Shown one piece after another: positions 4,778 through 35,375 of a stretch of 38,293 nt of DNA. Numbering within the stretch: position 1 is the first letter of the stretch; every line of letters begins with the position of its first letter. The position numbers were made by a program, and so were the translations under genes. The notes under the pieces were generated by a model that did not search any database, had not been told where the DNA came from, and was given only the letters and a program-made list of their open reading frames with translations. The stretch covers positions 1-38,293 of the forward strand of contig JAGOFO010000005.1 of the NCBI GenBank assembly GCA_017997155.1. Reading direction: 5' to 3'. Origin of the DNA: Myxococcota bacterium (GTDB lineage Bacteria; Myxococcota_A; UBA9042; DTJE01).

Positions 4778-4992
4778 AAAACGAAACCTGGGTTGGTTCC
4801 AGAGTGGTCCAAAAACGAAACCTGGGTTAGTTCCCGGAGGGGGTAAAAACGAAACCTGGGTTAGTTCCCGGAGGGGGTAAAAACGAAACCTGGGTTAGTT
4901 CCCGGAGGGGGTAAAAACGAAACCTGGGTTGGTTCCCGGAGGACCCCAAAGAGAAACCTGGGTTGGGGAAAGGGGTGGGGAAAAGTACTTTT
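4778..4992 (+). repeat. Array 1 of the GAAACCTGGGTT repeat: 6 direct copies at an exact 34-bp period, plus a G-rich tail
   Basis: Core copies start at 4783, 4817, 4851, 4885, 4919 and 4953. Units 4817-4918 are three identical 34-mers. The array lies in the gap between convergent genes. Confidence 0.95.
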
Positions 4993-5030
4993 GAAGTTCG
5001 GGTTAAGGTGTTTGAAATTACAGAGGTATG

Positions 5031-6218
5031 CTAGCGGGATGTTGCCTTGCGGAAGGCGCGTTCGAAGCCGGGTATGGCGCTGATGATCGTCTTGTCCGGA
5101 ACCGCGAAGGAAAGACGGAAATTGCCGGGAGCGTTGAAGCCCGATCCCGGGGTTGCCAGAACCAGTTCTTCCTTCAGCATCATGATGAAGGCGGGATCGT
5201 CCGGAATGGGAGACTTCGGAAACATGAAGAAGGTTCCCTGCGGTTTGGGCACGTCATAGCCGATCTCGGTCAGACCGTTGAACAGCAGGTCTCGCTTGGC
5301 CTGGTAGATCGGGACGTTCGACTCCCAGTCCTGAATTCTGGCCATCACCCGCTGCATCATGGCGGGAGCGTTGACGAACCCGAGCGTCCTGGTGCAGAAG
5401 GCAGCGGCCGCGAAGATCTCGCGGGCGCCGGCGCACCGGGGGCTGATCGCCAGGTATCCGATACGCTCGCCGGCGAGCGATATCGATTTTGAGTAAGACG
5501 TCACGATGACGGTGTCGTCGTAGTAGTCGGCCGGCGCCTCGTATTTCAGTCCGTCGAACAGCAGATTACGGTACGGTTCGTCTGAAACGATGAAGACCGG
5601 TCTGCCGATCTTGCGTGAGTGCTCAGTCAGCATCTCACCGATTTCCTTCAGGATTGTTCCAGGTATCATGCGTCCGGTCGGGTTACACGGCGAGTTGAGC
5701 ATCACCACGCGGGTTCGCGGTGTCAGGCGGCTTGCCATGTCCCGGACATCGGGCAGGCAGTCCGGAGTCGCCGGCGAAGTGACCTGCACGCCGTTGTGAT
5801 TCGAGATGTAGAACGAGTACTCGGGAAAGTACGGCGCCACCAGCATGACTTCGTCGCCGGGGTTCAGGACGCTGCGCAGGAAAACGTTTGACGCGCCCGC
5901 CGCTCCGACCGTCATCAGGATGTTCTCGGCTGGATAAGTCAGTCCGCCCTCGCGGGACAGCCTGGCCGCGATCGCGCGACGCGTCTCGATGTATCCGGGG
6001 TTCTGCATGTAGGTGTGCATTCCCGGAGTCTCGTCGGCTGCGACCTCCCGCAGCGCGTCGAAGAACTGCGGAGGAGGCTCGACGCAGGGACTTCCGAGTG
6101 TGAAGTCGAAAACCTTGTCGGCCCCGTGAATCTTTTTAAGCTCGAGCCCTTCCTCAAACATCCGCCTAATCCAAGAGCCGCGTTTTATATCCTGGCTGAC
6201 CTGATCCGACGTGTACAT
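5031..6218 (-). CDS. PLP-dependent class I/II aminotransferase (aspartate/alanine aminotransferase-like)
   Basis: The ORF contains SYSKS..LAGERIGY (PLP lysine region), NPCNPTG-like SPCNPTG and FRLSF motifs. The start was trimmed to ATG 6218 (MYTSDQVSQ...) because the upstream extension is Cys/Gly-rich and looks non-coding. Confidence 0.8.
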   Translation of the reverse strand: MYTSDQVSQDIKRGSWIRRMFEEGLELKKIHGADKVFDFTLGSPCVEPPPQFFDALREVAADETPGMHTYMQNPGYIETRRAIAARLSREGGLTYPAENILMTVGAAGASNVFLRSVLNPGDEVMLVAPYFPEYSFYISNHNGVQVTSPATPDCLPDVRDMASRLTPRTRVVMLNSPCNPTGRMIPGTILKEIGEMLTEHSRKIGRPVFIVSDEPYRNLLFDGLKYEAPADYYDDTVIVTSYSKSISLAGERIGYLAISPRCAGAREIFAAAAFCTRTLGFVNAPAMMQRVMARIQDWESNVPIYQAKRDLLFNGLTEIGYDVPKPQGTFFMFPKSPIPDDPAFIMMLKEELVLATPGSGFNAPGNFRLSFAVPDKTIISAIPGFERAFRKATSR

Positions 6219-6451
6219 CGAAGCACCTTCGTTTGATGACCAGCCGTTTGAATATCCCATCTGCCGGAAAGTCGCAACACCCCGGATCCGTCCACAGGCG
6301 CAGCCGGGCGAACACACGCTATTGACCGCGTGCCCTTATTGTTTCAAGCTAAAAGGTCATTGCACGGTGGCGCGATTCACGCAAAACGGTTTTTCGTGCG
6401 TGGCTGAATGTTCAGTCACGACTCCGCGGCCCCCGACAGGAGGAACAACCA

Positions 6452-8302
6452 ATGGATTACAAAGCCGATCTTCGGGACATCAAGTTCCTGCTTTTCGACG
6501 TTTTGAAAGCTGCCGACCTTCAGAAACTCGAGCATTACGCCGATTTCGGGGCCGACGACTACGAGGCCATTGTCGAGGCCGCGCATGACTTTGCCGCCGA
6601 GGTTCTCGGTCCGATCAATGATGTCGGAGACAAGGAAGGGCTCGGTTTCGGCCCCGATGGCGTGACGATGCCGACAGGCTTCGTTGAGGCTTGGAAGCGG
6701 TACGCCGCCGACGGCTGGGTTGGCGCGATAGTGCCCCAGGATGCCGGCGGCCAGGGTCTGCCGGTCCTGATGGATCAGGTTATTCACGAGCTGTTTCTGG
6801 GCGCCAACATCTCATTCTCGCTTCTTGGCGGACTGACCGAGGGCGTCATCGACCTGATCGACAAGTTCGGCGACCAGGCGCTGAAGGATCGTTTCATGTC
6901 CGGCCTGGTTGAAAAGGGCTGGGGCGGAACGATGTGCCTGACCGAGGACAACGCCGGTTCCGACGTCGGTGCAAGCCGCGCGGTCGCCCGTGACCGTGGT
7001 GACGGAACGTTCCTTATCGAGGGAACCAAGATTTTCATCACCGGCGGCGACCATGACATGTCCGAAAACATCGTGCACGCCGTTCTGGCAAGGATCGAGG
7101 GCGACGCTCCCGGCACGAAAGGCCTGTCGCTGTTCATCGTCCCGAAGTATTGCGTTGGACCCGACGGGCAGCTTGAACGCCCGCTGGCCACGAACGATGT
7201 CCGCTGCGCCCGTATCGAGCACAAGATGGGAATCAAGGCCTCGCCGACCTGCGTGTTGAATTTTGGCGACAACGGGGCCTGCGTCGGCTATCTCCTGGGC
7301 AATCGCTGCGCCGGCATGAAGCAGATGTTCCACATGATGAACGAGGCCCGCATCATGATTGGCGTGCAGTGCATGGCACTGGCCGCCATCGCGTACGAAA
7401 AGTCGCTTGAATACGCGGGTCAGCGTCTTCAAGGCACCGACATCGAGCACATGAAGGACCCGCGGGCCCCGAAAGTGCCGATCGTCACCCATCCGGACGT
7501 GCGTCGCATGCTGCTGACCCAGAAGGCGTACGTTGAGGCGATGCGCGGCATGCTCTACACGACCGCCATGTGGGAGGATCTCGCCCGCTACGCGTCGACC
7601 GACGAGGAAAAAGCGAAGTACCGCAGTTTTGTCGAGCTGATGACCCCGGTCTGCAAGTCCTGGTGCTCGGACATTGGATTCAAGTCGTGCGACCTCGGCA
7701 TGCAGGTCCTGGGTGGTTATGGCTACACCAGTGAGTACCCGCTGGAACAGTTCGTCCGCGACGCCAGGATCGGTCCCATTTATGAAGGGACCAACGGCAT
7801 CCAGGCGATGGATTTCGTGGGACGAAAGCTTCCCGCGAACAACATGGCCAACTTCTCTGCTTTCATCAAGGAAATCATAAACTTTGCCCAGGCAAACGCC
7901 GGCAACCGCGCCCTGGCCGACGGCTGCAACCGCCTGCGCGTCGCCGCCAACCAGGTTTCCGAGGCCGGTATGCGCCTGATGACAGCGGCCTTGAGGGACG
8001 TGCCCTTCCTGTTCTCACACGCGTACACCATGCAGGACGCCTTCGGCGAGGTTGTCGGGGGCTGGATGCTTCTGCAGCAGGCGGCGGTGGCATCAGCCCG
8101 CCTGGACGCGCTCTATGCGGAGAAGGGTGTGACGCTTGACACGGACAAGGCGGCGCTCGTGGCCGACAACCCGGATGCGAAGTTCTACTTCGGCAAGGTT
8201 AAGACCGCCGAATTCTATTGCAAAACCATTCTGCCGTTCGTAGCCGCCCGCCTCGAGATCATCAAGTCCGGCGACCACGCGGCGGTCGAGATGGTCTTCT
8301 AG
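6452..8302 (+). CDS. Long-type acyl-CoA dehydrogenase
   Basis: 616 aa. It has GGYGYTSEYPLEQFVRDARIGPIYEGTNGIQAMD (ACAD C-terminal signature), LTEDNAGSDV, and an extra C-terminal helical domain. GGAGGA lies upstream of the ATG. Confidence 0.85.
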   Translation: MDYKADLRDIKFLLFDVLKAADLQKLEHYADFGADDYEAIVEAAHDFAAEVLGPINDVGDKEGLGFGPDGVTMPTGFVEAWKRYAADGWVGAIVPQDAGGQGLPVLMDQVIHELFLGANISFSLLGGLTEGVIDLIDKFGDQALKDRFMSGLVEKGWGGTMCLTEDNAGSDVGASRAVARDRGDGTFLIEGTKIFITGGDHDMSENIVHAVLARIEGDAPGTKGLSLFIVPKYCVGPDGQLERPLATNDVRCARIEHKMGIKASPTCVLNFGDNGACVGYLLGNRCAGMKQMFHMMNEARIMIGVQCMALAAIAYEKSLEYAGQRLQGTDIEHMKDPRAPKVPIVTHPDVRRMLLTQKAYVEAMRGMLYTTAMWEDLARYASTDEEKAKYRSFVELMTPVCKSWCSDIGFKSCDLGMQVLGGYGYTSEYPLEQFVRDARIGPIYEGTNGIQAMDFVGRKLPANNMANFSAFIKEIINFAQANAGNRALADGCNRLRVAANQVSEAGMRLMTAALRDVPFLFSHAYTMQDAFGEVVGGWMLLQQAAVASARLDALYAEKGVTLDTDKAALVADNPDAKFYFGKVKTAEFYCKTILPFVAARLEIIKSGDHAAVEMVF

Positions 8303-8350
8303 GTTTCGTCCGTTTTCGCCCCCCCATGGTGGTCTTTTTCCGTCATTGGA

Positions 8351-8356
8351 TATAAT
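8351..8356 (+). promoter_or_regulatory. Candidate -10 hexamer (perfect TATAAT) upstream of the PhoH2 gene
   Basis: A perfect TATAAT lies in a GC-rich intergenic region, 35 nt upstream of ATG 8391. No convincing -35 element was found (GGTGGT at the expected position). Confidence 0.3.
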
Positions 8357-8390
8357 CTTGCGCCGGTTCGGTTTTCGACCAGGAGTGAGG

Positions 8391-9731
8391 ATGAAAAAGA
8401 ACTTCGTTCTTGACACAAACGTGCTGCTGCATGACCCGAACGCCTTGACCGGCTTCGCGGACAACAACGTTTGTGTGCCTATCTATGTCATTGAGGAGAT
8501 CGACAACTTCAAGAAGGAGTTGTCCGAGCTTGGCCGGAATGCCCGTCAGATTTCGCGGGATCTCGATGCGTTGCGGGCGCTCGGCAACATCGGAACCGGG
8601 GTTCAGACCGAGGCCGGCGGGTCGGTAAGGGTGCTGTTTTCGACTCGCAGTGACGTGTCCGAGGCGGAGATCGTCCACCGTGACGTGAACCTCAGCCATA
8701 TCATGGACCGTCTGATAATGGGCACCGCCATCGAGTTGAAGGCGGCCGAACCCGATATCCCCGTCGTCTTCGTAACCAAGGATACCAATCTCAGGATCCG
8801 GGCCGAGGCCGCTGGACTGGTCGCGGTCGATTACGACAAGCAGGGTAAGGACGTTACCGAGTTGTACACCGGGACCGGCGAAATGCTGCTGGGTCCCGAT
8901 CTGATCGGCGAACTGTTCCGCGTCGGCCATGTCGATGTTCCGGGTGGCCTGCCGGGCCTGTTTCACAACCAGTACCTCCTGGTCCGCAACGAGGCGAATC
9001 CCTCGCAGAGCGCCCTGGCCCGCGCCGCGACGCGCGAGGGCCGTCTGTACCGGACGGTCGAGGTTCGGGACTCCGTCTGGGGTATCAAACCGCGCAACAA
9101 GGAACAGCACTTCGCGTTCGACGCCCTTCTGCGCGACGACATCAGCCTTGTCACGCTGATAGGAAAGGCCGGTACCGGCAAGACGCTGCTGGCGATCGCG
9201 GCCGGGCTTCAGAAAGTCACCGAGGAAGAAACCTACACCAGGATGCTGGTGTCGCGCCCGATCTTCCCGCTTGGCCGGGACATCGGTTACCTGCCCGGAG
9301 ATGTCGAGGAGAAGCTGAATCCCTGGATGCAGCCGATCCATGACAACCTGGAGTTCCTGATGGGCCTCAGTCGCCAGGACCGCAAGACCTCGAACAGGTC
9401 CCCGCGCGAACTGATGGACATGAACATGATCAAGGTCGAGCCGCTGACGTACATCCGTGGTCGTTCGATCCCGAATCAGTACATGATTGTGGACGAGGCG
9501 CAGAATCTGACGCCGCACGAGGTCAAGACGATCCTGACGCGGGTAGGCGAGGGCACCAAGATCGTCCTTACGGGGGATCCCTACCAGATCGACAATCCTT
9601 ACGTGGATTCCGTCAACAACGGTCTGGCCTACATCGCCGAGAAGTTCAAGGATTCAGACATCGCCGCGACCGTGACCCTGATGAAGGGCGAGCGGTCCCG
9701 GCTGGCCGAACTGGCCGCAAATCTCCTTTAG
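8391..9731 (+). CDS. PhoH2-type protein (N-terminal PIN domain fused to PhoH-like ATPase)
   Basis: FVLDTNVLLHDP marks the PIN start. Walker A is [50 protein letters not shown] is the PhoH signature. AGGAGTGAGG precedes ATG 8391. Confidence 0.85.
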   Translation: MKKNFVLDTNVLLHDPNALTGFADNNVCVPIYVIEEIDNFKKELSELGRNARQISRDLDALRALGNIGTGVQTEAGGSVRVLFSTRSDVSEAEIVHRDVNLSHIMDRLIMGTAIELKAAEPDIPVVFVTKDTNLRIRAEAAGLVAVDYDKQGKDVTELYTGTGEMLLGPDLIGELFRVGHVDVPGGLPGLFHNQYLLVRNEANPSQSALARAATREGRLYRTVEVRDSVWGIKPRNKEQHFAFDALLRDDISLVTLIGKAGTGKTLLAIAAGLQKVTEEETYTRMLVSRPIFPLGRDIGYLPGDVEEKLNPWMQPIHDNLEFLMGLSRQDRKTSNRSPRELMDMNMIKVEPLTYIRGRSIPNQYMIVDEAQNLTPHEVKTILTRVGEGTKIVLTGDPYQIDNPYVDSVNNGLAYIAEKFKDSDIAATVTLMKGERSRLAELAANLL

Positions 9732-9781
9732 GATTGGCAGCGCCGCGCCGATTTTGACCGGGCGGCAATGCGGGGGACAGC

Positions 9782-10429
9782 ATGGACGTTGCAGATGCCG
9801 TCGGCAGCAGGCGTTCGATAATGTCGTTCGAACGCGATGCTCTGCTGTTGAGTCGCGAAGAGATCGAACAGCTCATCATGGACGCCTGCAGGGCTCCGTC
9901 CGAGTACAATCTGCAGCCCTGGCGCTTCCTGGTGGTCCGTGACCGTGAGCGCAAGCAGGCGCTTTACGACTGCTGCGGACGACAGGAAAAGGTTCGCGAG
10001 GCATCGGCACTGATCATCGTGTTTGGAGACTCGCGCGGATGGGAGCGGGCCGACGTAGCCGCAAAGGAGTTGCTTGCCGCCAGGAACGTCGCGAACGGCG
10101 GCGGGCAGCCCGATCAAAATGAATGCCGGGCACTGGCGGAGACCATTCGGAGTACTTATCTTCGTGACGAGCGTTTGCGGACGGCGATGTCGTTTCGCAA
10201 CGCATCACTGGTTGCGATGAATCTGATGCTTCTGGCCTCCGAGAAGGGCATATCGTCCTGCCCGGTGGGCGGCTTTTCGGAAGCCCAGCTCAGACGCGCA
10301 TTTGAAATCTCGGAGCGTTTTGTGCCGGTGATTGTCGTTGCTCTCGGCATGCCGTCGCTTAACGCCGGGCGTCCAGTCATAAAGCCTCGTCGTCCCGCCT
10401 CGGAAGTGATCTTCCATGAAGGGATGTAG
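9782..10429 (+). CDS. Nitroreductase family protein
   Basis: 215 aa. [10 protein letters not shown] and [16 protein letters not shown] are typical nitroreductase N-terminal motifs. Confidence 0.75.
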
Positions 10430-10482
10430 ACGCGTGGCGCGGTCCGGGCGCCGGTTCCGGCGAACCGACAACAGGTGAGTAT

Positions 10483-12768
10483 TTGAAACAGAATCTGAAG
10501 ACGATCCTTGTCTGGGTGCTGCTGGTCGGAGTGTTTTTTGCGATCGTGAAGACCGTTGATCGCAAGCCTGCCTCGACCGACATCAAATTCTCGGACTTCA
10601 TCGTGCTGGCGCTGGGTTCTGACAGCAAGTCCGACCAGACGGAAGTGCCCGCCGGGCATGCCTCCATCAAGGCGACCACTATCGAGGCAGCCCCGGTTGA
10701 GGGACAGGGTTCCGTAAGGGCGAATGATATTCGCCCTTCTGGGCAGGGTCAGGGTCAGGCGCAGGGACAGGGACAGGCTGGCGACGGCGCGAATGTCGCT
10801 CCTTCTCCTGAACCCGGAAAAGAACCGGCCCCGGTGCCCGCACCCGTGCCCGCACCCGTGCCTGCCGCTGAACCAGTCCCCGCACCCGTCCCGGCCCCCG
10901 TCCCGGCCCCCGTCCCGGCCACTGCACCCGCTCCCGCCCCTGTACCGGCACCGGCCCCTGCCGCCCCCGCGGCCAGTGTGGTCAAGGCTCCTCTGGGAGC
11001 GGCCGTGACTCCAGGCGCCGACTCAGCGTCCGAGCCCATGTTCAAGGTCGTGTCGATCGTCGTGACGGGCCGCAGGATCGAGGGAAAGTTTGCCGACGGC
11101 AAGGAATTCAAGACGTTTGGTGATATCACCGCGTATCAGAAGGACCTTGTCGCCGAGGGAATCGAGGTCACCTACAAGGACGAAACCGGCGGCATCTGGA
11201 CGGCACTGCTTACGTCCTGGCTGCCGATGATCTTCTTCCTCGCCATCTTCATCTTCTTCATGCGCCAGTCCTCGCAGGGTGGCGGCGGAAAGCTCTTCCA
11301 GTTCGGCAAGAGCAAGGCACGCCTGACCAACGAGGGCCAGACCACGGTTACTTTCAAGGACGTGGCCGGCATCCAGGAAGCCCAGGTTGAACTCTCCGAG
11401 ATCGTTGAATTTTTGAAGTCCCCGGATTCCTTCACGAAGCTTGGCGGCCGCATTCCGCGCGGCGTGCTCCTGATGGGACCTCCGGGCACCGGCAAGACGC
11501 TTCTCGCCAAGGCTGTGGCTGGTGAGGCCGGCGTACCTTTCTTCTCGATCTCCGGCTCGGATTTCGTCGAGATGTTCGTCGGCGTTGGCGCTTCCCGTGT
11601 CCGCGACCTTTTCGAACAGGGCAAGCGCAAGGCGCCGTGCATCATTTTTATCGACGAGATCGACGCGGTCGGTCGTCAGCGCGGCACCGGTCTTGGTGGC
11701 GGCCACGACGAGCGCGAACAGACACTGAACCAGCTTCTGGTGGAGATGGACGGCTTCGAGGCCAATTCGGGGGTCATCATCGTGGCGGCCACGAACCGTC
11801 CCGATGTTCTGGATCCCGCTCTGCTGCGTCCCGGCCGTTTTGACCGCCGCGTTGTGGTTTCCAGCCCGGACATAGCGGGCCGCGAGGCGATTCTGAAGGT
11901 GCACACGCGCAAGGTCCCGCTGTCCGGCGACGTGGATCTGGGCGTCGTGGCCCGCGGCACACCCGGCTTCGTGGGCGCGGACCTTGCCAACATCGTCAAC
12001 GAGGCGGCCCTGCTTGCCGCGCGCCGTGGAAGCGACAAAGTCTGCATGGTCGACTTTGACGAGGCCAAGGACAAGGTGATGATGGGCACCGCCCGCAAGA
12101 GTTTCGTGATGGGCGAGGAAGAGAAGAGACTGACCGCCTATCACGAGGCCGGCCACGCTATCGTCGCCAAGTCGGTCCCGGGCGCCGATCCCCTGCACAA
12201 GGTCACGATCATTCCGCGCGGCATGGCACTGGGCATGACCCAGCAGCTTCCGCTTGAGGACAGGCACACCGCGTCGCGCCGGTATCTGGTCGACAGGCTC
12301 GCGATCCTCATGGGTGGCCGCGCGGCCGAGAAGGTCGTGTTCGAGGACATCACGACCGGCGCCGGTCAGGACATCAAGGTCGCCTCGGACATCGCCAGGA
12401 AGATGGTCGCTCAGTGGGGCATGTCCGTTCTTGGTCCGGTTCATCTGGATCAGAACGAGGAAATGGTCTTCCTGGGGCGCGAGCTGTCGCATCAACGGGC
12501 GGTCAGCGAGCAGACCGCGATGCGCGTGGACCAGGAGATTTCCAAGCTGGTCACCGAGGCTCACGAGACCGCGCTCCGGATACTGACAGAGCGCAGGTCA
12601 GCGCTTGAGGCGCTTGCCAGCGCGCTGCTGGAACGTGAAACGCTGGATGGCTGGGAAGTGGACCGGCTGATCGTCGATTGCGGATTCGAGCCGGCGACGC
12701 TCAGCCACACGCCCCGGGTAGCGACGCCTCAGGAAGGCGGGTCCCCCCGACGGTACCGCGTCGGTTGA
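10483..12768 (+). CDS. ftsH: ATP-dependent zinc metalloprotease FtsH with an expanded periplasmic region
   Basis: Walker A is [23 protein letters not shown]. It also has [11 protein letters not shown], the second region of homology, and the HEAGHAIV zinc site. The start is TTG. There are two TM helices, at about residues 7-22 and 238-260. Confidence 0.95.
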
Positions 12769-12986: not shown

Positions 12987-13023
12987 TCCTCGTCATGTTT
13001 TGGCAATCATACCGGGGTGTCAG

Positions 13024-13371: not shown

Positions 13372-13374
13372 TTC

Positions 13375-13698: not shown

Positions 13699-13701
13699 TC
13701 G

Positions 13702-17755: not shown

Positions 17756-19709
17756 TCTGGCCGATGTCGGCGACGCGCGGACAGGTTTTTCGCCCGCGCC
17801 CGGGGTCCAGGCGGCCCCCGGCATCGCCGCGGTGTTCCTGGTCACCCTGGTTTTCTATCTGCTCTGGTTGCCCGGGACCGCTTACTGGCTGGATTCGCCG
17901 GAGTTCATGACAGCGGCGGCCTCGCTGGGGCTGGCTCATCCACCGGGACACCCCGTGGTCGCGGTTCTGATGAAACTGGCGTCGCTGCTGCCGCTTGGCG
18001 ACGTGCCGTTCAGACTTAACCTGGTGGGCGCGATTCTGGGCGCGGTTGCCGCCGGTTTGACCGGTGGTATCGCATGCGTCGTCGCGCAGCGGGTTCTTCA
18101 CCGTCTGAACAGGGACGGCAACACGGGCCGTTTGCGTCACGCATCGACCCTTGTCGGAGTGGCAGGCGGGCTGCTTTACGGCCTGGGCGCTTCCTCGATG
18201 ATCCAGGCGATGGCGGCCGAGGTCTACACCCTTAACGCGGCCCTGGTGCTTGGCGCGGTCTATCTGTTGATTTCCAGTCCCGACGGCGCCGACGCGCGTC
18301 GCACGCTGGCTGCCGCTGTTCTGATGGGCCTGGCCTTTGCCAACCATCACCTCCTGGGTCTTCTTGCCGGTCCGGCCGTGCTCGTGGCGGCTTTCCGGTC
18401 CCGGCGGGACACCCGGACGGTTATCGTCGCGGCCATGACAGCGTGCCTGGTGGCGGTGTGCTGCTATCTTTATCTGTGGGTGCGTTCGGCCGCCGGAGCC
18501 TGGCCCACCTGGTCTCCCGTGCGCGACCCTGCCGGCTTTTTCTGGTATGTGTCAGCGTCCATTTTTTCGCAGTCGCTCGGGGGCTTCGAGCAGTCGGGTG
18601 GTGGCATCGGCCAGAACCTTGCGTTGGCGTCGGTTGTCGCGGCCGGTTCCCTGGGCGTGGCCGGCGTTGTCCTGTCGCTCGGGGGCGCCTGGCTGGGCGC
18701 GCGTTCCGGAGCGGCCCGCGAGATCGTGGTCTTACTGCTGCTCGCGGCCGGGGGCTTTGGTTCAAAGGTCATGATGGGGATCCTCGACCCCTCGAATCCG
18801 GACGACCACGGTTACTTTTTGACAGCGCTGGCTGCGACCGCGGTTCTGGCCGCGTCGTTTTTCTGCCTTCCGATGGCAGCCGGAGGGGGCAGGGCGGGCC
18901 GGGTCGTGCGCGGCATTGCCTCGGCCCTGCTTGCCGCGATGGTCGTGGCGGTCATCCCCGCCAGCGTCGACGTTGGACGCGACAGATCACATTTTGACCA
19001 CACGCGGCGGGTTTCCAGACTGGTCTGGAGCGATGTCCCCAGCGGCTCGGTCGTGCTGGTGTCGCACTACCCGGTGTTCTTCCTGATGCAGTACCAGCAG
19101 ATGGTCGAGGGTGTGCGGCCGGATGTTTCGCTTGTCCAGCAGAGTCTATACTACAAGGCGCGCGGCGGCCAGTGGTACGCCCGTGAGATGAAGGCCCGGC
19201 ATGCCGACCTTTCCGGCCTGATGGACGCCTTCCAGGCAACCTCGCAGGTTTCCTGGCCGGCCCTTGAAGCGCTTGCCTCCCGCAGACCGGTTCTTCTTGA
19301 CCCGTCTCCAGACTTCGCCGCCCCCCTCGACCGCGTCTCCTTCGCGGGCTGGTTCTTTTCCGTCTCCCCCAGTCCTGCCGCACCCCCCAACCCAACCCAG
19401 GTTTCTTTTTCGGGCCCCGGAAACGCTCCCGGAAAAACAACCCAGGTTTCTTTTTCGGGGGGTGAACCGGCTGTGGAAAGGGGGGTAGACGCGCATCTGC
19501 TGTCCTTCGATCGCGTGCTTGGCCGGGCGCCGATGTCCAATGTCGAGACCAGGAGGGTGGTGACCCGTAATCTGGTTTCCGCGGGTGACTGGCTTCAGGG
19601 CGCAGGATACGACGCAGCCGCCATTGAGCTGTTTTCCCGTGCCGCGTATTACAATCCCGAGGATCGTTCGATTCGTGGACGCCTCGGAGATGTGGCGGGA
19701 GACAGATGA
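17730..19709 (+). CDS. Polytopic membrane protein of the DUF2723 / GT-C (PMT-like glycosyltransferase) type with a C-terminal soluble TPR-like region
   Basis: YWLDSPEFMTAAASLGLAHPPGHP is the characteristic first-loop motif of DUF2723/TMEM260-like GT-C proteins. More than 8 hydrophobic helices follow. The start codon is uncertain (GTG 17730 overlaps the CYTH gene). The stop overlaps the next ATG (ATGA). Confidence 0.65.
   Translation: MGGKQARTDLADVGDARTGFSPAPGVQAAPGIAAVFLVTLVFYLLWLPGTAYWLDSPEFMTAAASLGLAHPPGHPVVAVLMKLASLLPLGDVPFRLNLVGAILGAVAAGLTGGIACVVAQRVLHRLNRDGNTGRLRHASTLVGVAGGLLYGLGASSMIQAMAAEVYTLNAALVLGAVYLLISSPDGADARRTLAAAVLMGLAFANHHLLGLLAGPAVLVAAFRSRRDTRTVIVAAMTACLVAVCCYLYLWVRSAAGAWPTWSPVRDPAGFFWYVSASIFSQSLGGFEQSGGGIGQNLALASVVAAGSLGVAGVVLSLGGAWLGARSGAAREIVVLLLLAAGGFGSKVMMGILDPSNPDDHGYFLTALAATAVLAASFFCLPMAAGGGRAGRVVRGIASALLAAMVVAVIPASVDVGRDRSHFDHTRRVSRLVWSDVPSGSVVLVSHYPVFFLMQYQQMVEGVRPDVSLVQQSLYYKARGGQWYAREMKARHADLSGLMDAFQATSQVSWPALEALASRRPVLLDPSPDFAAPLDRVSFAGWFFSVSPSPAAPPNPTQVSFSGPGNAPGKTTQVSFSGGEPAVERGVDAHLLSFDRVLGRAPMSNVETRRVVTRNLVSAGDWLQGAGYDAAAIELFSRAAYYNPEDRSIRGRLGDVAGDR
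19394..19450 (-). repeat. Array 2 of the GAAACCTGGGTT repeat: 2 copies 45 bp apart, embedded in frame in a CDS
   Basis: AACCCAGGTTTC occurs at 19394-19405 and 19439-19450. Both copies sit in the longer repeat CAACCCAGGTTTCTTTTTCGGG. They translate to TQVSFSG twice in the 17730..19709 ORF. Confidence 0.9.
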
Positions 19710-26799: not shown

Positions 26800-27699
26800 T
26801 CAACGGTCGGAAATTTCGATTCCCAGTGGAGTATTCAACAGTTTTTCGTGTTTCGGCTGGTTGATGCGCGTGCGTTCCTCGCGGGCTTTCACGACGCTCA
26901 TGCCGGAGGCGACCAGAGCCTCGACCGCGGCGGCTTCGTTTTCCACCTGCTGCTTGACGGCGCCGTAGGATGCCCAGCCGACCTGCAGCTTGCCGTTGAC
27001 CAGGAAGGCCGGGGTGCCGCGGGCCTCAAGCTCCATGGCGATGTTGCCCTCGGTCTTTATGCGCTGACGCAGGGCAGGGTCCTCGAAGTCCTTGCGGAAC
27101 CTTGTCATGTCCAGCTTGAGCGAGGATGCATAACCCATCAGGTCGGACTCCGTGAGTGCCCTCTGGTTCTGGAAAAGGATGTCGGCGTACTCCCAGAACT
27201 TTCCCTGGCGGGCGGCGGCCATCGCTGCCGCGGCGGCGCTCATGGCGTTGGGGTGCATTTCAAGGGCGTTGTTCTTGAACACATGGCGCACCTTGTCTGG
27301 ATAGTCGGCCGCGAGCTGGGCCAGACCCTCATGGGCGCGTTTGCATACCGGGCACTGGAAGTCCGAGATCTCGATGAACACGACGGGGGCGTCCTTGGAC
27401 CCGCGCGAAGGACTGGCGTCAGTGGCGGGCTTGGTTCCCTCGGGGATCGCGATCTGGCGGGGCACCGGCCTGTCGGACATCGGTGACACCGGGAAGGTCT
27501 GCGGAGCCTGGTTGGCAGCAGCCTGGGGCGCCGGAGCCGGGCTGGGACGCGCAGCCGGGGCAGGCTGGGCGGCAGTTGGCTGTGCCACCTGCTCGGACGG
27601 GCTGTCCTTGCAGGGATTCCAGTCGCTGGTCACACGGCCAAGTACGAAAGCACCCGCTCCCAGAACAATAAAGGCTATGACAATCAGGATTTTCTTCAT
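26800..27699 (-). CDS. Secreted DsbA-family thioredoxin-fold protein
   Basis: MKKILIVIAFIVLGAGA is a signal-peptide-like N-terminus. A Pro/Ala-rich linker, a CPVC active site and a DsbA-like helical insertion (QGKFWEYADILF) follow. ATG 27699 is preferred over GTG 27747. Confidence 0.75.
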   Translation of the reverse strand: MKKILIVIAFIVLGAGAFVLGRVTSDWNPCKDSPSEQVAQPTAAQPAPAARPSPAPAPQAAANQAPQTFPVSPMSDRPVPRQIAIPEGTKPATDASPSRGSKDAPVVFIEISDFQCPVCKRAHEGLAQLAADYPDKVRHVFKNNALEMHPNAMSAAAAAMAAARQGKFWEYADILFQNQRALTESDLMGYASSLKLDMTRFRKDFEDPALRQRIKTEGNIAMELEARGTPAFLVNGKLQVGWASYGAVKQQVENEAAAVEALVASGMSVVKAREERTRINQPKHEKLLNTPLGIEISDR

Positions 27700-27802
27700 T
27701 GTGGTCAGCCTCAAAAAAAGCCCGCTGATTCCTACCACGTAAGCCACCTTCTATCAAGTACCTGCCTGCATTTCCCAACCTTTTCCACCACCATCCCCAC
27801 CC

Positions 27803-28003
27803 AACCCAGGTTTCCATTTCTACCCAACCCAGGTTTCGATTTTGGCCCTCTCTGCCCAACCCAGGTTTCCATTTCCGGCACCTTGAACCCAACCCAGGTT
27901 TCCAATATTTGCCAGTCCAGACCCAACCCAGGTTTCCAATATTTGCCAATCCAGACCCAACCCAGGTTTCCATTTCTGGCGCCTTGAACCCAACCCAGGT
28001 TTC
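27803..28003 (-). repeat. Array 3 of the GAAACCTGGGTT repeat: 7 direct copies (minus-strand orientation)
   Basis: AACCCAGGTTTC starts at 27803, 27826, 27858, 27891, 27925, 27959 and 27992. The array lies in the divergent intergenic region between the DsbA-like gene and a kinase gene. Confidence 0.95.
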
Positions 28004-28136
28004 CATTCTGGCCCTGAATCTCGCGCGTCATAACGGTTGGCGACCATCGCAGACTGCGATATTCTAGACATCTGTTACGAAAGTTCAGTCGGGGTTCTGT
28101 GTTATCGCATGTTCGGGGGGACCCGGAGGTACGGTT

Positions 28137-29936
28137 GTGAAAGGCGTCGAGGGCGAGATCGTCGGCGGACGGTACGTGATTGGACGTCAAGTCGGTTCCG
28201 GCGGTTTTGGAACAGTCTTTCTGGGACGTCAGATCAATCTCGACCGCGAGGTCGCCATCAAGGTGATGCGACGGGGTCCAGAGGAACCGGCAGTCGCTCG
28301 CGAACGCTTCAGGCGCGAGGCCATTCTCAGCAGTGGTTTGAGTCATCCGAACATCGTTACCTGTCACGACTTCCTCGTCGACGATGATGACGATCTGATC
28401 CTGGTGATGGAATACCTGCGTGGCGTCACGATGGACAGGATTCTGGCGGCGTCTGGTCGGATGGAGCCAGGCAGGGTGGCGGATCTCGTCGCAGGAGTCG
28501 CAGCAGGCCTTGGCGAGTGCCACCGCTGCGGGATTGTTCACAGGGACATTAAGCCGTCGAACATCTTCATTATCGATGAGGGGACAACCAGAGAGAGGGC
28601 GAAGATCATCGACTTCGGCATTCTGTGGGCCATGCCGGACTTTGACGGGGGCCTTCCCGAATTGACTAGGGCCAACGCCTTCATCGGGACTCCCGAGTAT
28701 GTCGCTCCCGAGGTCCTTTTCGGTGCTCTTCCCGACGGAGGAACCGATCAGTACGCGCTCGCCTTGGTCGTGCTGCGAGCAGTGACTGGTCAGCTCCCAT
28801 TCCCAGACTCCAAAGGCGCGGCGCTGTTGAAGAGGTTGACAGATCGGCCGCCTTTGCTGGATCACGAGGTCATGCGGGCGTGGCCGACCGTTCGTGGCGT
28901 GTTGTTCAAGGCATTGTCTCCGGATCCGGGGGATCGTTTTGAAGACATCGACCAGTTCGGTTCGGCCCTTGCCGATGCAGCCGATGTTGGCAGACGAGCA
29001 GCGCAGGCAGGTTCGGTCACGACCGAAACCGTGGTTGAACTGAATCACCCCGGGCTTCCGTGCGATAGTTCATCAGCCTTTGTCCGCGCGTCGAACAACG
29101 CGATCGTTGAGGACAATGGCGAGGCTGCGGATATCTCATCCCAGGTTGAAGCTATTTCATCCCAGGTTGAAGCTGACGGAACCAGACCATCTGCGGGTCA
29201 CCGCATCAAGTGGCTTGCATTGCTGTTCGCCCTCGTGGCTGTTGGCTTTGGAACTGGCGTTGTCTACCTTGTGGTGTCTGACGCCGGAGCTCGGACCGTA
29301 TCGGCGCCTGCGGGCCATCCTGTGGTGGCAGCCGTTGCTCCTGACCCGTCGGAAGCCGAGGAAGACACGACTCCTCCTGTTTCGTCTGCGTTGCCTCGGA
29401 TGGCTGCCCCCGAAACAACTCCCGAAGCACTTGCGCCGTCGCCGGTCCTGGCGTCGGAGCCCCCTGTGGACAAAACCACTTCAGAGTCCGTTTCAAAGGC
29501 CGCGCGCACTGTAAAGACAGAACCAGTGGCCGAGCGTCCACGGACAAACAGGCCGGAGGTCTCCCGAAAGCCTTCCACCCGTTCGCCTTCCAGCATGAAC
29601 GCGGGGTCTGGAGATACCTCGACAGTCAAGCGCCCCTCGCCAGATCCATTGCCAGCGGTTGAACCGGTCCAGATCTCCCAAGCGATCCCTGCACCTGCGC
29701 CTGCGGTTCCGACTGAGGTTGCACCGTCTGAGGAGACGGCCCTGATAATCAATGCGGAACCCTTTGGCCAGGTTACTTATGATGGGCGCCGGATGGGACA
29801 GACTCCAGTAGTAATTGAAAGCCCCAAGCCGGGCCAGCATACGGTCGAGGTCGTCAGCGCATCGAACGTCACTATCAGAAGGGTGGTGACTGTCGAAGAG
29901 GGAAAAAGAAAGGTGGAGTTCTTCAGCCTGGACTGA
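28137..29936 (+). CDS. Hanks-type Ser/Thr protein kinase with TM helix, Pro-rich linker and C-terminal PEGA-like domain
   Basis: GSGGFGTVFLG, VAIKVM, HRDIKPSNI, DFG and TPEYVAPE motifs. The TM helix is WLALLFALVAVGFGTGVVYLVV. The C-terminal INAEPFGQVTYDGRRMGQTPVVIESPKPGQHTVEV resembles a PEGA domain. The GTG start is preceded by GGAGG. Confidence 0.9.
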   Translation: MKGVEGEIVGGRYVIGRQVGSGGFGTVFLGRQINLDREVAIKVMRRGPEEPAVARERFRREAILSSGLSHPNIVTCHDFLVDDDDDLILVMEYLRGVTMDRILAASGRMEPGRVADLVAGVAAGLGECHRCGIVHRDIKPSNIFIIDEGTTRERAKIIDFGILWAMPDFDGGLPELTRANAFIGTPEYVAPEVLFGALPDGGTDQYALALVVLRAVTGQLPFPDSKGAALLKRLTDRPPLLDHEVMRAWPTVRGVLFKALSPDPGDRFEDIDQFGSALADAADVGRRAAQAGSVTTETVVELNHPGLPCDSSSAFVRASNNAIVEDNGEAADISSQVEAISSQVEADGTRPSAGHRIKWLALLFALVAVGFGTGVVYLVVSDAGARTVSAPAGHPVVAAVAPDPSEAEEDTTPPVSSALPRMAAPETTPEALAPSPVLASEPPVDKTTSESVSKAARTVKTEPVAERPRTNRPEVSRKPSTRSPSSMNAGSGDTSTVKRPSPDPLPAVEPVQISQAIPAPAPAVPTEVAPSEETALIINAEPFGQVTYDGRRMGQTPVVIESPKPGQHTVEVVSASNVTIRRVVTVEEGKRKVEFFSLD

Positions 29937-30377: not shown

Positions 30378-30497
30378 CGTTCATGGAGAAAGCGACCGTG
30401 TTGATTCTGTGCATGACCGAGTTCGGATATCATGTGCGCGTACGGGCGCGACAGGATGACCGTTGCAGCAGGCAACTCTGTCCGCGGGAGGTTTGAG

Positions 30498-30896
30498 ATG
30501 AAGTGTTTTGATGTGCGCACGGCGCGACCTGCGCAGACTCTGGATATTACCGGGCAGGTAAGGGCGGTGGTCGCCGAGGGTGGAAAATGGTCCGGAGCCG
30601 CGTTGGTCTGGTGTCCTCACACGACGGCCGGTATTTACTGTAATGAAGGCGCGGATCCCGATGTAGTGACCGATGTGGAGTCGACTCTGGAACAGATGGT
30701 GCCGCCCAGGCAGGAGTACCTGCACGCGGAAGGAAATTCGCATGCTCACATCAGGTCTATCCTGACCGGTTGCTCACTTCTGGTTCCGGTTGAGGACGGT
30801 GAACTGAAACTGGGTACGTGGCAGCACGTGTTTTTTTCCGAGTTCGATGGTCCCAGGGTCAGACAGGTCTGGGTACAGTTTCTTCAGGGTCTGTGA
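30498..30896 (+). CDS. YjbQ/UPF0047 family protein (secondary thiamine-phosphate synthase-like)
   Basis: LDITGQV...ALVWCPHTTAGIYCNEGADPDV..D......HAEGNSHAHIRS...GTWQHVFFSEFDGPR is the typical UPF0047 pattern. GGGAGG precedes ATG 30498. Confidence 0.75.
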   Translation: MKCFDVRTARPAQTLDITGQVRAVVAEGGKWSGAALVWCPHTTAGIYCNEGADPDVVTDVESTLEQMVPPRQEYLHAEGNSHAHIRSILTGCSLLVPVEDGELKLGTWQHVFFSEFDGPRVRQVWVQFLQGL

Positions 30897-30956
30897 CACT
30901 CCGGGTGGTGGCGGGGACCTGCCTGAGTTCTTGTCCAGGCGGACGTCAACGCCCTG

Positions 30957-31142
30957 AAAACGAAACCTGGGTTCGAAATTCCGGTGCCTGAAACGGACCC
31001 AGAAACGAAACCTGGGTTCGACAAAAACGAAACCTGGGTTCGAAATTCCGGTGCCTGAAACGGACCCAAAAACGACCGGAAAAAGAAACCTGGGTTCGAG
31101 TTTTTTGACCTGTATATGTGCCTGAAAAAGGAAACCTGGGTT
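30957..31142 (+). repeat. Array 4 of the GAAACCTGGGTT repeat: 5 direct copies
   Basis: Copies start at 30962, 31007, 31029, 31085 and 31131. The 45-nt block 30957-31001 is repeated exactly at 31024-31068. Confidence 0.95.
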
Positions 31143-31173
31143 GGGAATTGTGCCCAGGATACAGGGGGTTGCG

Positions 31174-31719
31174 ATGGGCGGCGAAAAAACGGGTGGCTAT
31201 CGTCTCGGGGCGGATATCGAGATTTACTGTCGATACTGCAGGCTGAACCTTGACGGAGTTGTATCCGCGCTCGACGGCGAAGGCAACCTGGCCAAGGTCA
31301 AGTGCGGGACCTGCGGCCATTTCCAGGATTTCAAACCACCCGTGGACATGGAAGAGAAGCACCGGAAACTGGTGGCAAAAGCGATGCGTATCGCCGAGAG
31401 ACACACCCGGGGTCCGGATGCCGCCCGCGCATCGTCGACCAAGTCCGGTAAGGGCACTCGCGGGTCAGCTGGCTCGCCCGAGGCGGAGTTGACGCAGGAG
31501 GCCGTCATGAGGCGGCTCTGGGACGAGGCGACCGCCGATGTTTCACCGATGAAAGCCAAGGTCTACGACAAATTCCGTTCGTATCACAAAGACGATGTGA
31601 TTTCTCACAAGGCCCACGGCCTTGGTGTTGTTGTTCGCGATGATGTTGAAGGGTCGATGACTGTTCTGTTCAGAGACTCTGTGCTGGAACTCGAGCACAA
31701 CGCCCCCCGCGAAGACTGA
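31174..31719 (+). CDS. Zinc-ribbon protein with a basic linker and a small C-terminal beta domain, function unknown
   Basis: CRYC...CGTCG zinc ribbon. The C-terminal KDDVISHKAHGLGVVV loosely resembles the GD.V.H..HG.G motif of CarD/TRCF-type Tudor-like domains. ATG 31174 is preferred because the GTG/TTG at 31141 lies inside the repeat. Confidence 0.55.
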   Translation: MGGEKTGGYRLGADIEIYCRYCRLNLDGVVSALDGEGNLAKVKCGTCGHFQDFKPPVDMEEKHRKLVAKAMRIAERHTRGPDAARASSTKSGKGTRGSAGSPEAELTQEAVMRRLWDEATADVSPMKAKVYDKFRSYHKDDVISHKAHGLGVVVRDDVEGSMTVLFRDSVLELEHNAPRED

Positions 31720-33742: not shown

Positions 33743-33785
33743 GGCTTCCTTTCACATCGGCCCAAACCGTTAGTCGTCGGGATTC

Positions 33786-35015
33786 CTACCTGATGCCGTG
33801 CTTGCGCTCGAGATACTCGTAGTAATCAATGACCGATCTGACGTACTGCCGCTTCTGACTGTACGAACCATGGTAGAAGCTGCGTTTGAAGCCGTAAACG
33901 ATGATGTCCTTCAGTTCAGCGGGGCCGATATTGAAGGTCTCGACGGCGAGTTGGATCTCGCGCGTGACGGTTGTATTCGAGACCAGTCGGTTGTCGGTAC
34001 AGAGTGTTGTCGACAGGCGCAGATCGAGCATCTTGCCGAACGCGTGATCCTTGAGAGTTTTGATTTCAGGGTTCGTCTGCATGTTCGAGGTCAGGCAGAC
34101 TTCGATCGTTATTCGGCGGTCGGCGATGTACTCGGACAGTCGGCGAACGTAGTCGACCGGGTCCGCGATGGCGCGCGATGTGATCTTGCTGGGACTGAGC
34201 AGGTAGTAGCCGTGTCCAAGGCGGTCTGCGTGCAGATCGGTGATCGCCTGGAAGATCGACTCGGGTCCGTAGGCCTCGCCCGCATGAACGGTTTTCTTCA
34301 AAAAGTTCTTGTGGCAGAAGTCGTAGGCATCCTTGTGCTCGCCAGCCGGAAAGCCGGCCTCGGCCCCGGCCAGGTCAAAACCCGTGATCGGGATACCCTG
34401 TCTGTCACGTATCTGGACCGCCGCGCGTGCCATTTCCAGCGAGGTCATCGAGCCGACGGCATGGTCAGGCGAGTATGCGTGAACGCGGAACATGTCTTTG
34501 AAGTAGGGAGACAGGACCGGCATGGCGTTGCGCATCGCGCACACGATGATCCCGTAGTGTCCGTCCGGGCCACGTTCCGGTTCCGGGATTTCGCGAAGAC
34601 GCGCGTTGAAGTCGGCCGTGGCGGCGGCCAGACCACGGTTTACCGCGCAAAGCACGTCATTGACCGGGAAATCGGCTGTGATGTGAAGTTGAGGGGCGAA
34701 GCGTACCTCGAAGTATCGAACGCCTTCTTTGAAGTTGTCTTCAGCGAGCTCGTACGCAATCCGTTCGATCTGTTCGGCATTCGTCATGACGGCTGTCGTC
34801 AATGAGAAACCTTGCAAATACTCGACCAGGCTGGCGTACTTGTCCTTGAAAACGAGCTCGCGCAGACCATCCTCGGTGTATGAGGGAAGCTGGACGCCGG
34901 CTTCCCGGGCCAGTTCGATCAATGTTGGGATTCGCAGCGAGCCGTCCAGGTGGACGTGAAGGTCGGTTTTGGGAATTTCTTTGATAAATTCGGACGTTAT
35001 AGGCGTCATTGTCAT
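33786..35015 (-). CDS. Adenosine/AMP deaminase family metallohydrolase
   Basis: DLHVHLDGSLR (HxH metal site), VHAGE and CTDN-type motifs. At 409 aa it is longer than the classical Add. GGGAGA precedes the ATG. Confidence 0.8.
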   Translation of the reverse strand: MTMTPITSEFIKEIPKTDLHVHLDGSLRIPTLIELAREAGVQLPSYTEDGLRELVFKDKYASLVEYLQGFSLTTAVMTNAEQIERIAYELAEDNFKEGVRYFEVRFAPQLHITADFPVNDVLCAVNRGLAAATADFNARLREIPEPERGPDGHYGIIVCAMRNAMPVLSPYFKDMFRVHAYSPDHAVGSMTSLEMARAAVQIRDRQGIPITGFDLAGAEAGFPAGEHKDAYDFCHKNFLKKTVHAGEAYGPESIFQAITDLHADRLGHGYYLLSPSKITSRAIADPVDYVRRLSEYIADRRITIEVCLTSNMQTNPEIKTLKDHAFGKMLDLRLSTTLCTDNRLVSNTTVTREIQLAVETFNIGPAELKDIIVYGFKRSFYHGSYSQKRQYVRSVIDYYEYLERKHGIR

Positions 35016-35159
35016 GTCTCCCTGATCCCCCCTTGGGGACCGCTTGTGTTTTCAAACCGTCAGGTCATCAAAGATAAGGCTTTGTACTGGTTTTGTCGAT
35101 TCGAAGCGATGGAACGCGACCCGGCGGGTTCGAAACCCGGGTATACTGCCTGTGGAACA

Positions 35160-35375
35160 GAAACCTGGGTTGTGTTTTTAGGTCCCTGAATTCGGACGAA
35201 AACAGAAACCTGGGTTGGCAAAAATCGAAACCTGGGTTGGCCAAGAATCGAAACCTGGGTTGGCCAGAAATCGAAACCTGGGTTGGCTCCATGACGGCCA
35301 GAAATTGAAACCTGGGTTGGTCAGAAATCGAAACCTGGGTTGGCTCCATGACGGCCAGAAATTGAAACCTGGGTT
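35160..35375 (+). repeat. Array 5 of the GAAACCTGGGTT repeat: 8 direct copies
   Basis: Copies start at 35160, 35205, 35227, 35250, 35273, 35307, 35330 and 35364. The 55-nt block 35265-35319 is repeated at 35322-35376. Confidence 0.95.

Follow-up and report, generated by a model that had tools for sequence, protein, structure and literature searches.

A repeat family with 11.3-bp spacing, probably associated with a RayT-like Y1 transposase, in a Myxococcota lineage

Repetitive extragenic palindromic (REP) sequences and their RAYT transposases are among the commonest repeat families of bacteria, and the way in which such repeats are recognised, copied and clustered is poorly understood. Earlier descriptions cover REP clusters that recur in tandem together with the adjoining DNA, REP insertions that keep the reading frame of a gene, and TIRtrons (PMC3733652, PMC6006769); TIRtrons and the TIRYT transposases were reported by Di Nocera et al. 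(2013; PMC3733652) and the TnpA-Y1 subclass 2.1 by Quentin et al. (2018; PMC6006769), in whose survey the HuH motif NHYH occurs in subclasses 2.1, 2.3 and 2.8 and no REP-like sequences were found for 2.1 and 2.3. Here we report a repeat family from 38,293 nucleotides of a Myxococcota bacterium (GCA_017997155.1, contig JAGOFO010000005.1, positions 1 to 38,293 of the forward strand; this whole stretch is the window), in which a 12-mer, GAAACCTGGGTT, forms head-to-tail arrays with copies spaced at multiples of about 11.3 bp. These repeats are likely to be the cognate family of a RayT/TIRYT-type Y1 (HUH) tyrosine transposase. The initial annotation of the window had recognised phased repeats acting at the level of DNA, a view which is retained here; what it missed was the cognate link to a RayT/TIRYT-type transposase, which is encoded just outside the window.

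The transposase gene and the repeats around it

Across the 38.3-kb window GAAACCTGGGTT occurs in 28 exact copies, grouped in five head-to-tail arrays (A1 to A5). When up to two mismatches are allowed, 33 matches are found against 2.9 expected, a number reached in none of 100 shuffles, and the shorter core AACCTGGGT has 29 copies in the window against 0.23 expected. Relatives were gathered by a pattern scan of one genome per species together with a metagenome scan. They include a sister metagenome-assembled genome (MAG), CAZNJW01 (labelled Anaeromyxobacteraceae), which is ~90% identical to the window and has matches on only five contigs, and metagenome contigs of the same species complex, which are 90-99.5% identical to each other; the matches of UvrB carry the label Myxococcota.

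The rightward continuation of the window (contig L033, its contiguity confirmed by L059) encodes a 292-amino-acid protein at L033:11002-11880, ~9.5 kb past the window's right end. The protein matches Pfam Y1_Tnp (E=1.5e-5) and carries the HuH motif NHYH and a class-2 tyrosine motif, YTLTNPV (Y-x3-NPV), both of which are invariant in 32 homologues. In a search with the family profile the top-ranking solved structure was that of E. coli TnpA-REP, 4ER8 (E=1.9e-5), and the AlphaFold model (pLDDT 89) likewise has its best fold match in 4ER8 (TM 0.72, root-mean-square deviation 2.3 Å), with the transposases of ISDra2, IS200 and IS608 next; the C-terminal half is modelled with confidence as helical and has no match in the PDB. 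Many of the homologues carry the JGI label ‘REP element-mobilizing transposase RayT’, and protein length ranges from 292 to 317 amino acids. Neither insertion sequence (IS) ends nor a tnpB were found around the gene, which appears to be single-copy and syntenic within the lineage.

The repeats cluster around this gene. About 21 loci with more than 60 copies lie in ~80 kb, mainly in intergenic DNA and concentrated around the gene; on a composite map the density of loci per 10 kb is 9 within 5 kb of the gene and 4, 2.5, 0.85, 0.67 and 0.78 farther out, and the size of the gaps between loci increases with distance from the gene (Spearman rho = 0.87, P=8e-7; P=1e-4 against uniform placement). As copy density decays with distance from the gene, cis-preferential seeding is pointed to. 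On the upstream side a three-copy array (intervals 46 and 66) lies 145 nt from the gene on the opposite strand, and on the downstream side a copy on the gene's own strand lies 925 nt away, within the OTCase gene. All arrays with an exact core in public assemblies tile onto a single ~95-kb stretch; leftward of the window at least 31 kb are free of them, and the 10 kb of this stretch that was examined held one degenerate array only. This array (L097:14584-14674, ~3.8 kb left of the window) consists of GAAACCTCGGTT, TTAACCTGGGTT and GAAACCCGGGTT at spacings of 44 and 35, between seryl-tRNA synthetase and short-chain dehydrogenase genes; its A-tracts are weak and it looks to be decaying, yet it keeps the spacing bands.

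The gradient bears on another explanation for a short exact repeat, namely a signal resembling a DNA uptake sequence, made up of the core and phased AT tracts and accumulating through biased uptake and recombination. A 12-mer that is exact, has an A-tract next to it and occurs in coding DNA on both strands would suit such a signal, and Haemophilus uptake sequences carry helically phased AT tracts. However, uptake sequences are evenly placed at ~1 per kb, whereas the gradient here is steep and local; tandem arrays are no feature of known uptake sequences, the copy in the MutS2 gene (see below) sits in an inserted segment and did not come from point mutation, and the motif is missing from relatives with 80-86% identical UvrB. 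We therefore regard this explanation as extremely improbable.

The association of gene and repeat extends beyond this lineage. Seven loci from six other lineages, encoding homologues 40-51% identical, were compared, and in five of the six lineages the gene is flanked by motif variants sharing AACCTGGGT or CCTGGG. The variant is AAAAATC-AACCTGGGTGG in L107, A8TT-AACCTGGGTCGG in L108/L109, TC-AACCTGGGTCGGGG in L112 (five copies upstream and four downstream), AACCTGGGT in L111 (one copy upstream and two downstream) and GAAAC-GTCCCTGGGAC-GG in L110; in L112 ACCTGGGT occurs in 10 copies against 0.8 expected. In all five, as in L033, the upstream copies are on the opposite strand to the gene and the downstream copies on the same strand, with the A-tract end towards the gene, and in all five other lineages the first downstream copy lies 211-235 nt past the stop codon. 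A syntenic relative without the gene between OTCase and MutS2 (L114) has no AACCTGGGT in 22.5 kb. Just downstream of its OTCase gene, where the lineage studied here carries the RayT-like gene, L114 has a 33-nt x3.6 tandem repeat, AACCTTGATTTTCTAAAGGCAGGCAGCGAAAAG (4513-4632). A separate observation concerns the window's Ser/Thr kinase gene, in which a 21-nt unit is tandemly duplicated at 29132-29174 (minus strand). This strand reads AGCTTCAACCTGGGATGAAAT, resembling the ATC-AACCTGGGTGG that flanks a second RayT homologue (L107), from the same metagenome as L033; the duplication may represent a second repeat family in the same genome.

If the repeats are indeed the partner of the transposase, the enzyme would recognise or cut the motif, probably as single-stranded DNA, in the manner of IS200/IS605 and TnpA-REP. 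Copies would be seeded preferentially nearby, into intergenic DNA and tolerant loops of genes, and once seeded would amplify in place, head-to-tail, through slippage or unequal exchange. However, this reading should be considered with caution, as a number of observations weigh against it. The repeat has neither a GT[AG]G tag nor a 20-40-nt hairpin, and single-stranded folding is significant for A5 (z=-2.8 on the top strand, where cores pair with cores, and -1.1 on the bottom strand) and not for A1 (z=+0.2, no structure), so that a consistent hairpin was ruled out as a shared feature. The copies cluster locally, whereas classical REPs spread genome-wide. The protein matches the NCBIfam REP-associated tyrosine transposase model (NF047646) with E=7.9e-14 but scores 51.8 bits against a cut-off of 80, and on that score it is a distant relative, not an equivalog. 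One homologue (L113) has no flanking motif, and in other lineages the 16 spacings around the homologous genes show no significant periodicity (R=0.33, P=0.17); the transposase model by itself predicts no 11-bp spacing rule. Finally, the map is a composite of strains and short-read assemblies, and distant copies may be under-sampled because such assemblies break at repeats.

Should the association be confirmed, a cognate repeat would be available for a branch of Y1 transposases for which the 2018 survey found none. The partner repeat is short, non-hairpin, tagged by an A-tract and conserved across homologues which are only 40-51% identical, and if the link holds it would offer a simple oligonucleotide substrate for biochemistry.

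Architecture and spacing of the arrays

Array A1 (plus strand; cores 4783-4964, full extent 4777..4966) has six copies of A-tract, GAAACCTGGGTT and GG at five intervals of 34, and A2 (minus strand; cores 19394-19450, full extent 19392..19456) has two copies at an interval of 45. A3 (minus strand; cores 27803-28003, full extent 27801..28009) comprises seven copies at intervals of 33, 34, 34, 33, 32 and 23, and A4 (plus strand; cores 30962-31142, full extent 30956..31144) five copies at 45, 22, 56 and 46, the spacers being made up of A-tract modules of ~11 nt. The longest, A5 (plus strand; exact cores 35160-35375, full extent 35132..35377), begins with one degenerate copy, GAAACCCGGGTA, at 35132-35143, ahead of eight exact copies at intervals of 45, 22, 23, 23, 34, 23 and 34. 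The tally of 23 intervals given in the initial annotation (22x2, 23x4, 32x1, 33x2, 34x9, 45x3, 46x1, 56x1) is exact, and its description of an A-tract before almost every core is confirmed: among 112 unique instances from the window and relatives, position -5 is A in 76%, -4 in 89% and -3 in 85%, while +13 is G in 88%. The extended motif thus reads RAAAW-N, then GAAACCTGGGTT, then GG, with a footprint of ~21-22 bp, which accounts for the minimal spacing of 22-23. The motif centre, AACCTGGGTT, is a 10-nt quasi-palindrome without a loop, which pairs with itself on the top strand only, via T.G/G.T.

The spacers have a regular structure of their own. A-rich peaks lie upstream of the next core at -3..-5, -13..-16, -25..-27 and -37..-40, that is every ~11-12 nt, and the A-A autocorrelation peaks at lags of 10-13 and again at 22-24. 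The unit is best described as k modules of ~11 nt, in each of which an A-tract joins a GC-rich stretch, with the 12-nt core at the end. By eye, the modules of one unit are unlike each other, and a higher-order repeat derived from a single ancestral 11-mer was rejected on this ground. Intrinsic curvature as a general property of the arrays was not supported: a wedge model, which is a weak test, places A1, A2 and A3 at the 34th-68th percentile and A5 at the 83rd, and predicts strong curvature for A4 only (98th percentile), in which the most curved predicted point of the window falls (31069). No cooperative or filament-forming binder was identified.

The spacing itself is strongly quantised. At a period of 11.3 the Rayleigh R is 0.95 for all 23 window intervals and 0.94 for the 19 distinct spacers, values equalled by no random set in 5,000-20,000 trials. 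With relatives pooled, 113 intervals reduce to 71 distinct spacers and these to 51 clusters below 80% identity, with lengths of 19, 21, 22-23 (x6), 27, 29, 32-35 (x19), 37, 43-47 (x13), 56-57 (x7) and 66. The pooled fit is length = 11.30n - 0.25 (R = 0.76), which none of 20,000 uniform or +-5-jitter nulls reaches (P<5e-5). The proposed quantisation at ~11.25 bp hence survives in the wider set of strains as an 11.3-bp period; it is not absolute, as off-band spacers of 19, 27, 29 and 37 occur, some variants arising via internal deletions (43 to 34, 45 to 29). Since 51 non-redundant spacers keep the rule, it is not a product of unit duplication within the window alone. The initial annotation had itself cautioned that tandem duplications make some intervals non-independent, and the possibility of a few founder units is answered only in part. 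Most same-size spacers from different loci are unrelated, but the 45-nt units of A4 and A5 are alike. Spacer pairs above the 99th shuffle percentile make up no more than 5-8% in the n=3 and n=4 classes; in the small n=5 class they are commoner, at 4 of 21.

The k modules of ~11 nt and the 12-nt core of each unit would put successive cores in one register, which would amount to one helical face if the in-vivo repeat is ~11 bp. The in-vivo helical repeat, as obtained from looping, is reportedly ~11.1 bp (Lee and Schleif 1989; Mueller et al. 1996), and the 11.3-bp period matches it. Three causes of the spacing were weighed roughly. Growth by modules, in which A-tract modules of ~11 nt are gained or lost at the recurring AAAC through slippage or cleavage by the enzyme, is quite possible, if short of an even chance. 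Selection for a common register of the cores, allowing cooperative binding of a protein to one face, is also possible; the binder could be the uncharacterised C-terminal half of the transposase or a host nucleoid protein, as on the bacterial interspersed mosaic elements (BIMEs) of E. coli, on which IHF or gyrase act. A small number of founder unit sizes is a doubtful third. The phasing of A-tracts inside the spacers favours either of the first two. If the association with the transposase is confirmed, the arrays would further provide a natural in-phase and off-phase series with which to test the role of register in binding or amplification.

Such a regular spacing could also be explained without the transposase, whose presence would then be incidental, if the repeats were helically phased sites for a DNA-binding protein acting cooperatively on one face, such as an OmpR/PhoB/ArcA or LytTR regulator, a nucleoid protein or an iteron or centromere binder. 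The robust fit of 11.30n - 0.25, the phased A-tracts and the agreement with the looping-derived helical repeat all speak for this, and a footprint of ~22 bp with a two-turn minimal spacing resembles iterons or LytTR or AraC sites. There is also an unrelated contig of 36% GC, L087, which at 873-1075 holds 10 copies of RAAACCYGGGTT at 21-22 and 43 nt with A-runs ahead of the copies, directly beside a gene for a stand-alone LytTR DNA-binding domain (1176-1625; Pfam E=1.8e-8). However, this is a single association, and as no LytTR signature was found in ~100 kb of the present lineage a LytTR regulator was rejected as the binder. Of 17 intergenic arrays, about seven occupy the promoter-less space between convergent genes, and other copies lie within genes; the arrays are missing from close syntenic relatives and vary in number and unit between strains, unlike a conserved regulon; the 28 cores are all identical, a uniformity well beyond that of transcription-factor sites; no general curvature is predicted; and the motif co-varies with RayT homologues in six lineages. 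Phased operator-like sites are thus distinctly unlikely. In a more far-reaching reading, the ~300-amino-acid RayT-like branch, so far reported without REP partners, would have a conserved partner motif, A-tract plus AACCTGGGT, and in this Myxococcota lineage the head-to-tail arrays would be bound in helical register by the protein itself or by a partner from the host, marking a chromosomal domain of ~90 kb around the transposase gene. The repeats would then be more than selfish DNA and would serve a domesticated, cis-acting system for DNA organisation or the tuning of expression. We consider this unlikely; were it true, the 11.3-bp rule would read out the in-vivo helical repeat.

The 12-mer is also found elsewhere in public data. 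Most other matches to the 12-mer pair belong to unrelated families (low-GC freshwater hairpin arrays, soil hairpin repeats, and 41-42-nt repeats in Treponema, Neobacillus and others) and were set aside. In further repeat families the same 12-mer lies inside a longer perfect hairpin, GGAAACCTGGGTTTCC or GGAGG-GAAACCTGGGTT-TCCCTC, in 36/43-nt or 46-52-nt arrays from freshwater and soil metagenomes (L030, L032, L037, L040, L055 and L088 at 18-28% GC; L029, L046, L056, L075 and L092 at ~60-67% GC). These hairpin families are probably unrelated to that of the window. A full-text look-up of the exact sequence in the literature gave eukaryotic primer matches or nothing.

Genomic context and variation between strains

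Gene calls were based on Pfam matches, a codon model and the pattern of synonymous and non-synonymous changes relative to the 90% relative's sequence. A1 has convergent genes on its two sides, a PilZ-like gene (4387-4725, plus) and an aminotransferase gene (5031-6317, minus), while A3 and A5 occupy divergent regions, A3 between a DsbA-like gene (26800-27747, minus) and the Ser/Thr kinase gene (28137-29936, plus), and A5 between an adenosine deaminase gene (33786-35015, minus) and a DJ-1/PfpI gene (ATG at 35410, plus). A4 is flanked by co-directional genes, a YjbQ/UPF0047 gene (30432-30896, plus) and a small gene (~31150-31719, plus). A2 is antisense within the 3' part of a TMEM260-like open reading frame (ORF) at 17730-19709 (plus); the plus strand here translates as the repeated peptide TQVSFSG, and the pattern of substitutions against the 90% relative indicates that the frame is held through the array. 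Among all loci the intergenic arrays are ~7 convergent, 6 divergent and 4 tandem, and single copies and short arrays also occur within genes on either strand.

One of these is the MutS2 gene adjoining the transposase (L033:12324-14000), in which the motif is translated in frame as KNETWVGG. It sits in a lineage-specific insertion of ~40 amino acids, in a variable loop before the Walker A motif, for which reason an origin by point mutation was rejected; in one strain a further A-tract module of 12 nt adds KNDP there. This copy matches the in-frame REP insertions that have been published. The earlier exclusion of a peptide-coding explanation is accordingly correct for the periods of 22, 23 and 34, which cannot code, and too broad for A2, within its ORF, and for the copy in MutS2.

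Transcribed elements acting at the level of RNA, either as 5'/3' untranslated-region sponges for an RNA-binding protein or as regulatory hairpins through the self-complementary AACCUGGGUU, would fit the position of A3, A4 and A5, which end 30-55 nt ahead of start codons and point the same way as the gene that follows; through G.U pairs the cores can pair with one another, but on a single strand, and the top strand of A5 folds significantly. However, an array in a divergent or convergent region is bound to agree in this way, so that tandem contexts alone are informative. There two arrays are co-oriented with transcription and two antisense, and an orientation rule was rejected. Copies within genes may be antisense, A1 has no structure, the distance to the next gene is variable, and Rfam at its gathering threshold matches tRNA-Arg only and leaves the repeats unmatched. 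The contexts and orientations of the arrays thus disfavour both a promoter operator and an RNA element, the latter being highly improbable. With no orientation bias relative to transcription, and with a DNA transposase as the associated protein, the initial preference for a function in DNA rather than RNA is upheld. Scans for sigma-70 promoters and terminators around A1, A3 and A5 gave nothing above shuffles; the reverse strand does resemble a weak hairpin followed by a T-run, yet arrays also occupy divergent regions, and a role as terminators was discarded.

The arrays are highly variable between strains. In assemblies with an identical neighbouring protein the copies of A1 number 4, 5 or 6, and L042 (99.3% identity) has 5. 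A2 is identical in L011, L044 and L058. In the sister MAG the A3 ortholog has four copies at 34, 22 and 33, the A4 ortholog intervals of 29, 45 and 46 (45, 22, 56 and 46 in the window) and the A5 ortholog three copies at 37 and 37 (eight copies in the window); one further locus is built of 22/23-nt units in two strains but of 27/44-nt units in another. A3 and A5 are absent from the orthologous regions of L102 and L103, and in L102 the gap orthologous to A4 is 20 nt only, which makes A4 an insertion. No motif was found in the syntenic relatives without arrays (L102-L104), nor any arrays or motif at the orthologous sites of syntenic relatives with UvrB 86% and 80% identical. The varying copy numbers and the syntenic relatives without the motif indicate that the arrays are recent, lineage-specific insertions which behave like variable number tandem repeats (VNTRs).

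VNTR-like behaviour would also be expected of a passive minisatellite, formed without a dedicated trans-acting factor by ectopic recombination and slippage, in which the spacing bands reflect a few founders and AAAC microhomology. In support, the units of any one array are near-identical, A4 and A5 have related 45-nt units, the interiors of same-size spacers are on average closer than shuffles (z ~6), the off-band variants come from internal deletions, and other lineages are not periodic. It would, however, leave unexplained an invariant 12-mer with its A-tract at more than 20 loci despite diverged spacers, the retention of AACCTGGGT beside RayT homologues of only 40-51% identity, and a density gradient centred on the gene, and few of the n=3 and n=4 spacer pairs are closer than the 99th shuffle percentile. 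A passive origin is therefore quite improbable. Whatever their origin, the arrays constitute hypervariable strain markers in a Myxococcota lineage which is common in anaerobic digesters, and they break short-read assemblies.

Other repeats and rearrangements were observed in the same regions. A relative with 73% identical UvrB has (CAGGGA)n-type hexamer arrays in intergenic DNA (L105, L106), at several further sites as well as at those orthologous to A3 and A5, so that the same intergenic sites host another repeat family in another lineage; in the window, (CAGGGA)x5.7 and C-rich 12-mer repeats lie at 10744-10777 and 10834-10961, in the 5' part of an FtsH ORF. An IS4-family transposase is inserted beside a repeat array in one strain (L033:1977-3426) and is absent in L059. 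The segment L033:1-1847 is unmatched to the window left of 38164, suggesting a strain-specific rearrangement near tRNA-Arg(CCT) (window 38030-38106). Elsewhere in the window (12958-14289), three consecutive bactofilin genes are followed by phosphoribosyltransferase-like and FHA/zinc-ribbon genes in an arrangement resembling the Myxococcus bacNOP cluster.

Relation to described repeat systems

Among known systems that employ direct repeats at multiples of ~11 bp are the phased operators and iterons, such as PhoB/PhoP boxes, ArcA sites (11-bp multiples), LytTR sites (21-22 bp), plasmid iterons (22-23 bp) and the 11-bp iterons of R1 parC, which share with the arrays a two-turn minimal spacing, a footprint of ~20-22 bp and AT-rich flanks. 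They differ in lying at promoters, origins or centromeres and in being degenerate and conserved between relatives, whereas the repeats described here are invariant in sequence, lineage-specific and hypervariable in number, and occur in promoter-less regions and in genes. DNA uptake sequences are evenly distributed and mainly single copies, unlike the tandem arrays and steep local gradient of this family.

The IS200/IS605 elements (IS608, ISDra2) have in common with the present system the HUH/Y1 catalytic fold and strand-specific recognition of an imperfect palindrome that tolerates mismatches, and their insertion beside a short, regenerated target could give tandem copies; here, in contrast, there are no IS ends and no tnpB, and the repeats are much shorter than an IS. 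The closest likeness is to the REPtrons (REP/BIME with RAYT) of E. coli and Pseudomonas. In both there is a Y1 HUH transposase with a Y-x3-NPV motif, the protein described here having its best match by sequence and fold in 4ER8, and the cognate repeat stands in inverted orientation on the two sides of the gene. In both the repeats, here as mapped over ~80 kb, are mainly extragenic, often at 3' ends between convergent genes, and form regularly spaced arrays whose size differs between strains, with in-frame copies within genes, and motif and enzyme co-vary between lineages. However, the present family has no GT[AG]G tag or 20-40-nt hairpin, only a 10-nt quasi-palindrome after an A-tract; the copies in its arrays are all head-to-tail rather than alternating; the protein has ~300 amino acids, with an uncharacterised C-terminal half, and falls below the NCBIfam cut-off; and the mapped copies lie within tens of kb of the gene instead of genome-wide, at spacings quantised at 11.3 bp.

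The TIRYT/subclass 2.1 proteins, which are prevalent in delta-proteobacteria, resemble the RayT-like protein in being longer than classical RAYTs (~240-320 amino acids) and in having an NH[YF]H HuH motif and a C-terminal extension, a likeness drawn from these features. TIRtrons similarly have flanking inverted repeats, which may belong to moderately abundant families present as dimers or clusters, although their consensus is GGGGWSAS (PMC3733652) as opposed to A-tract plus AACCTGGGT(N)GG here. A flanking motif conserved across lineages, a local gradient in density and helical spacing are not described in either PMC3733652 or PMC6006769. Because tag, hairpin, orientation, A-tract, protein length, clustering and spacing all differ, the repeat is not filed as a classical REP; the element is likely to be a RayT/TIRYT-associated repeat family with an unusual architecture.

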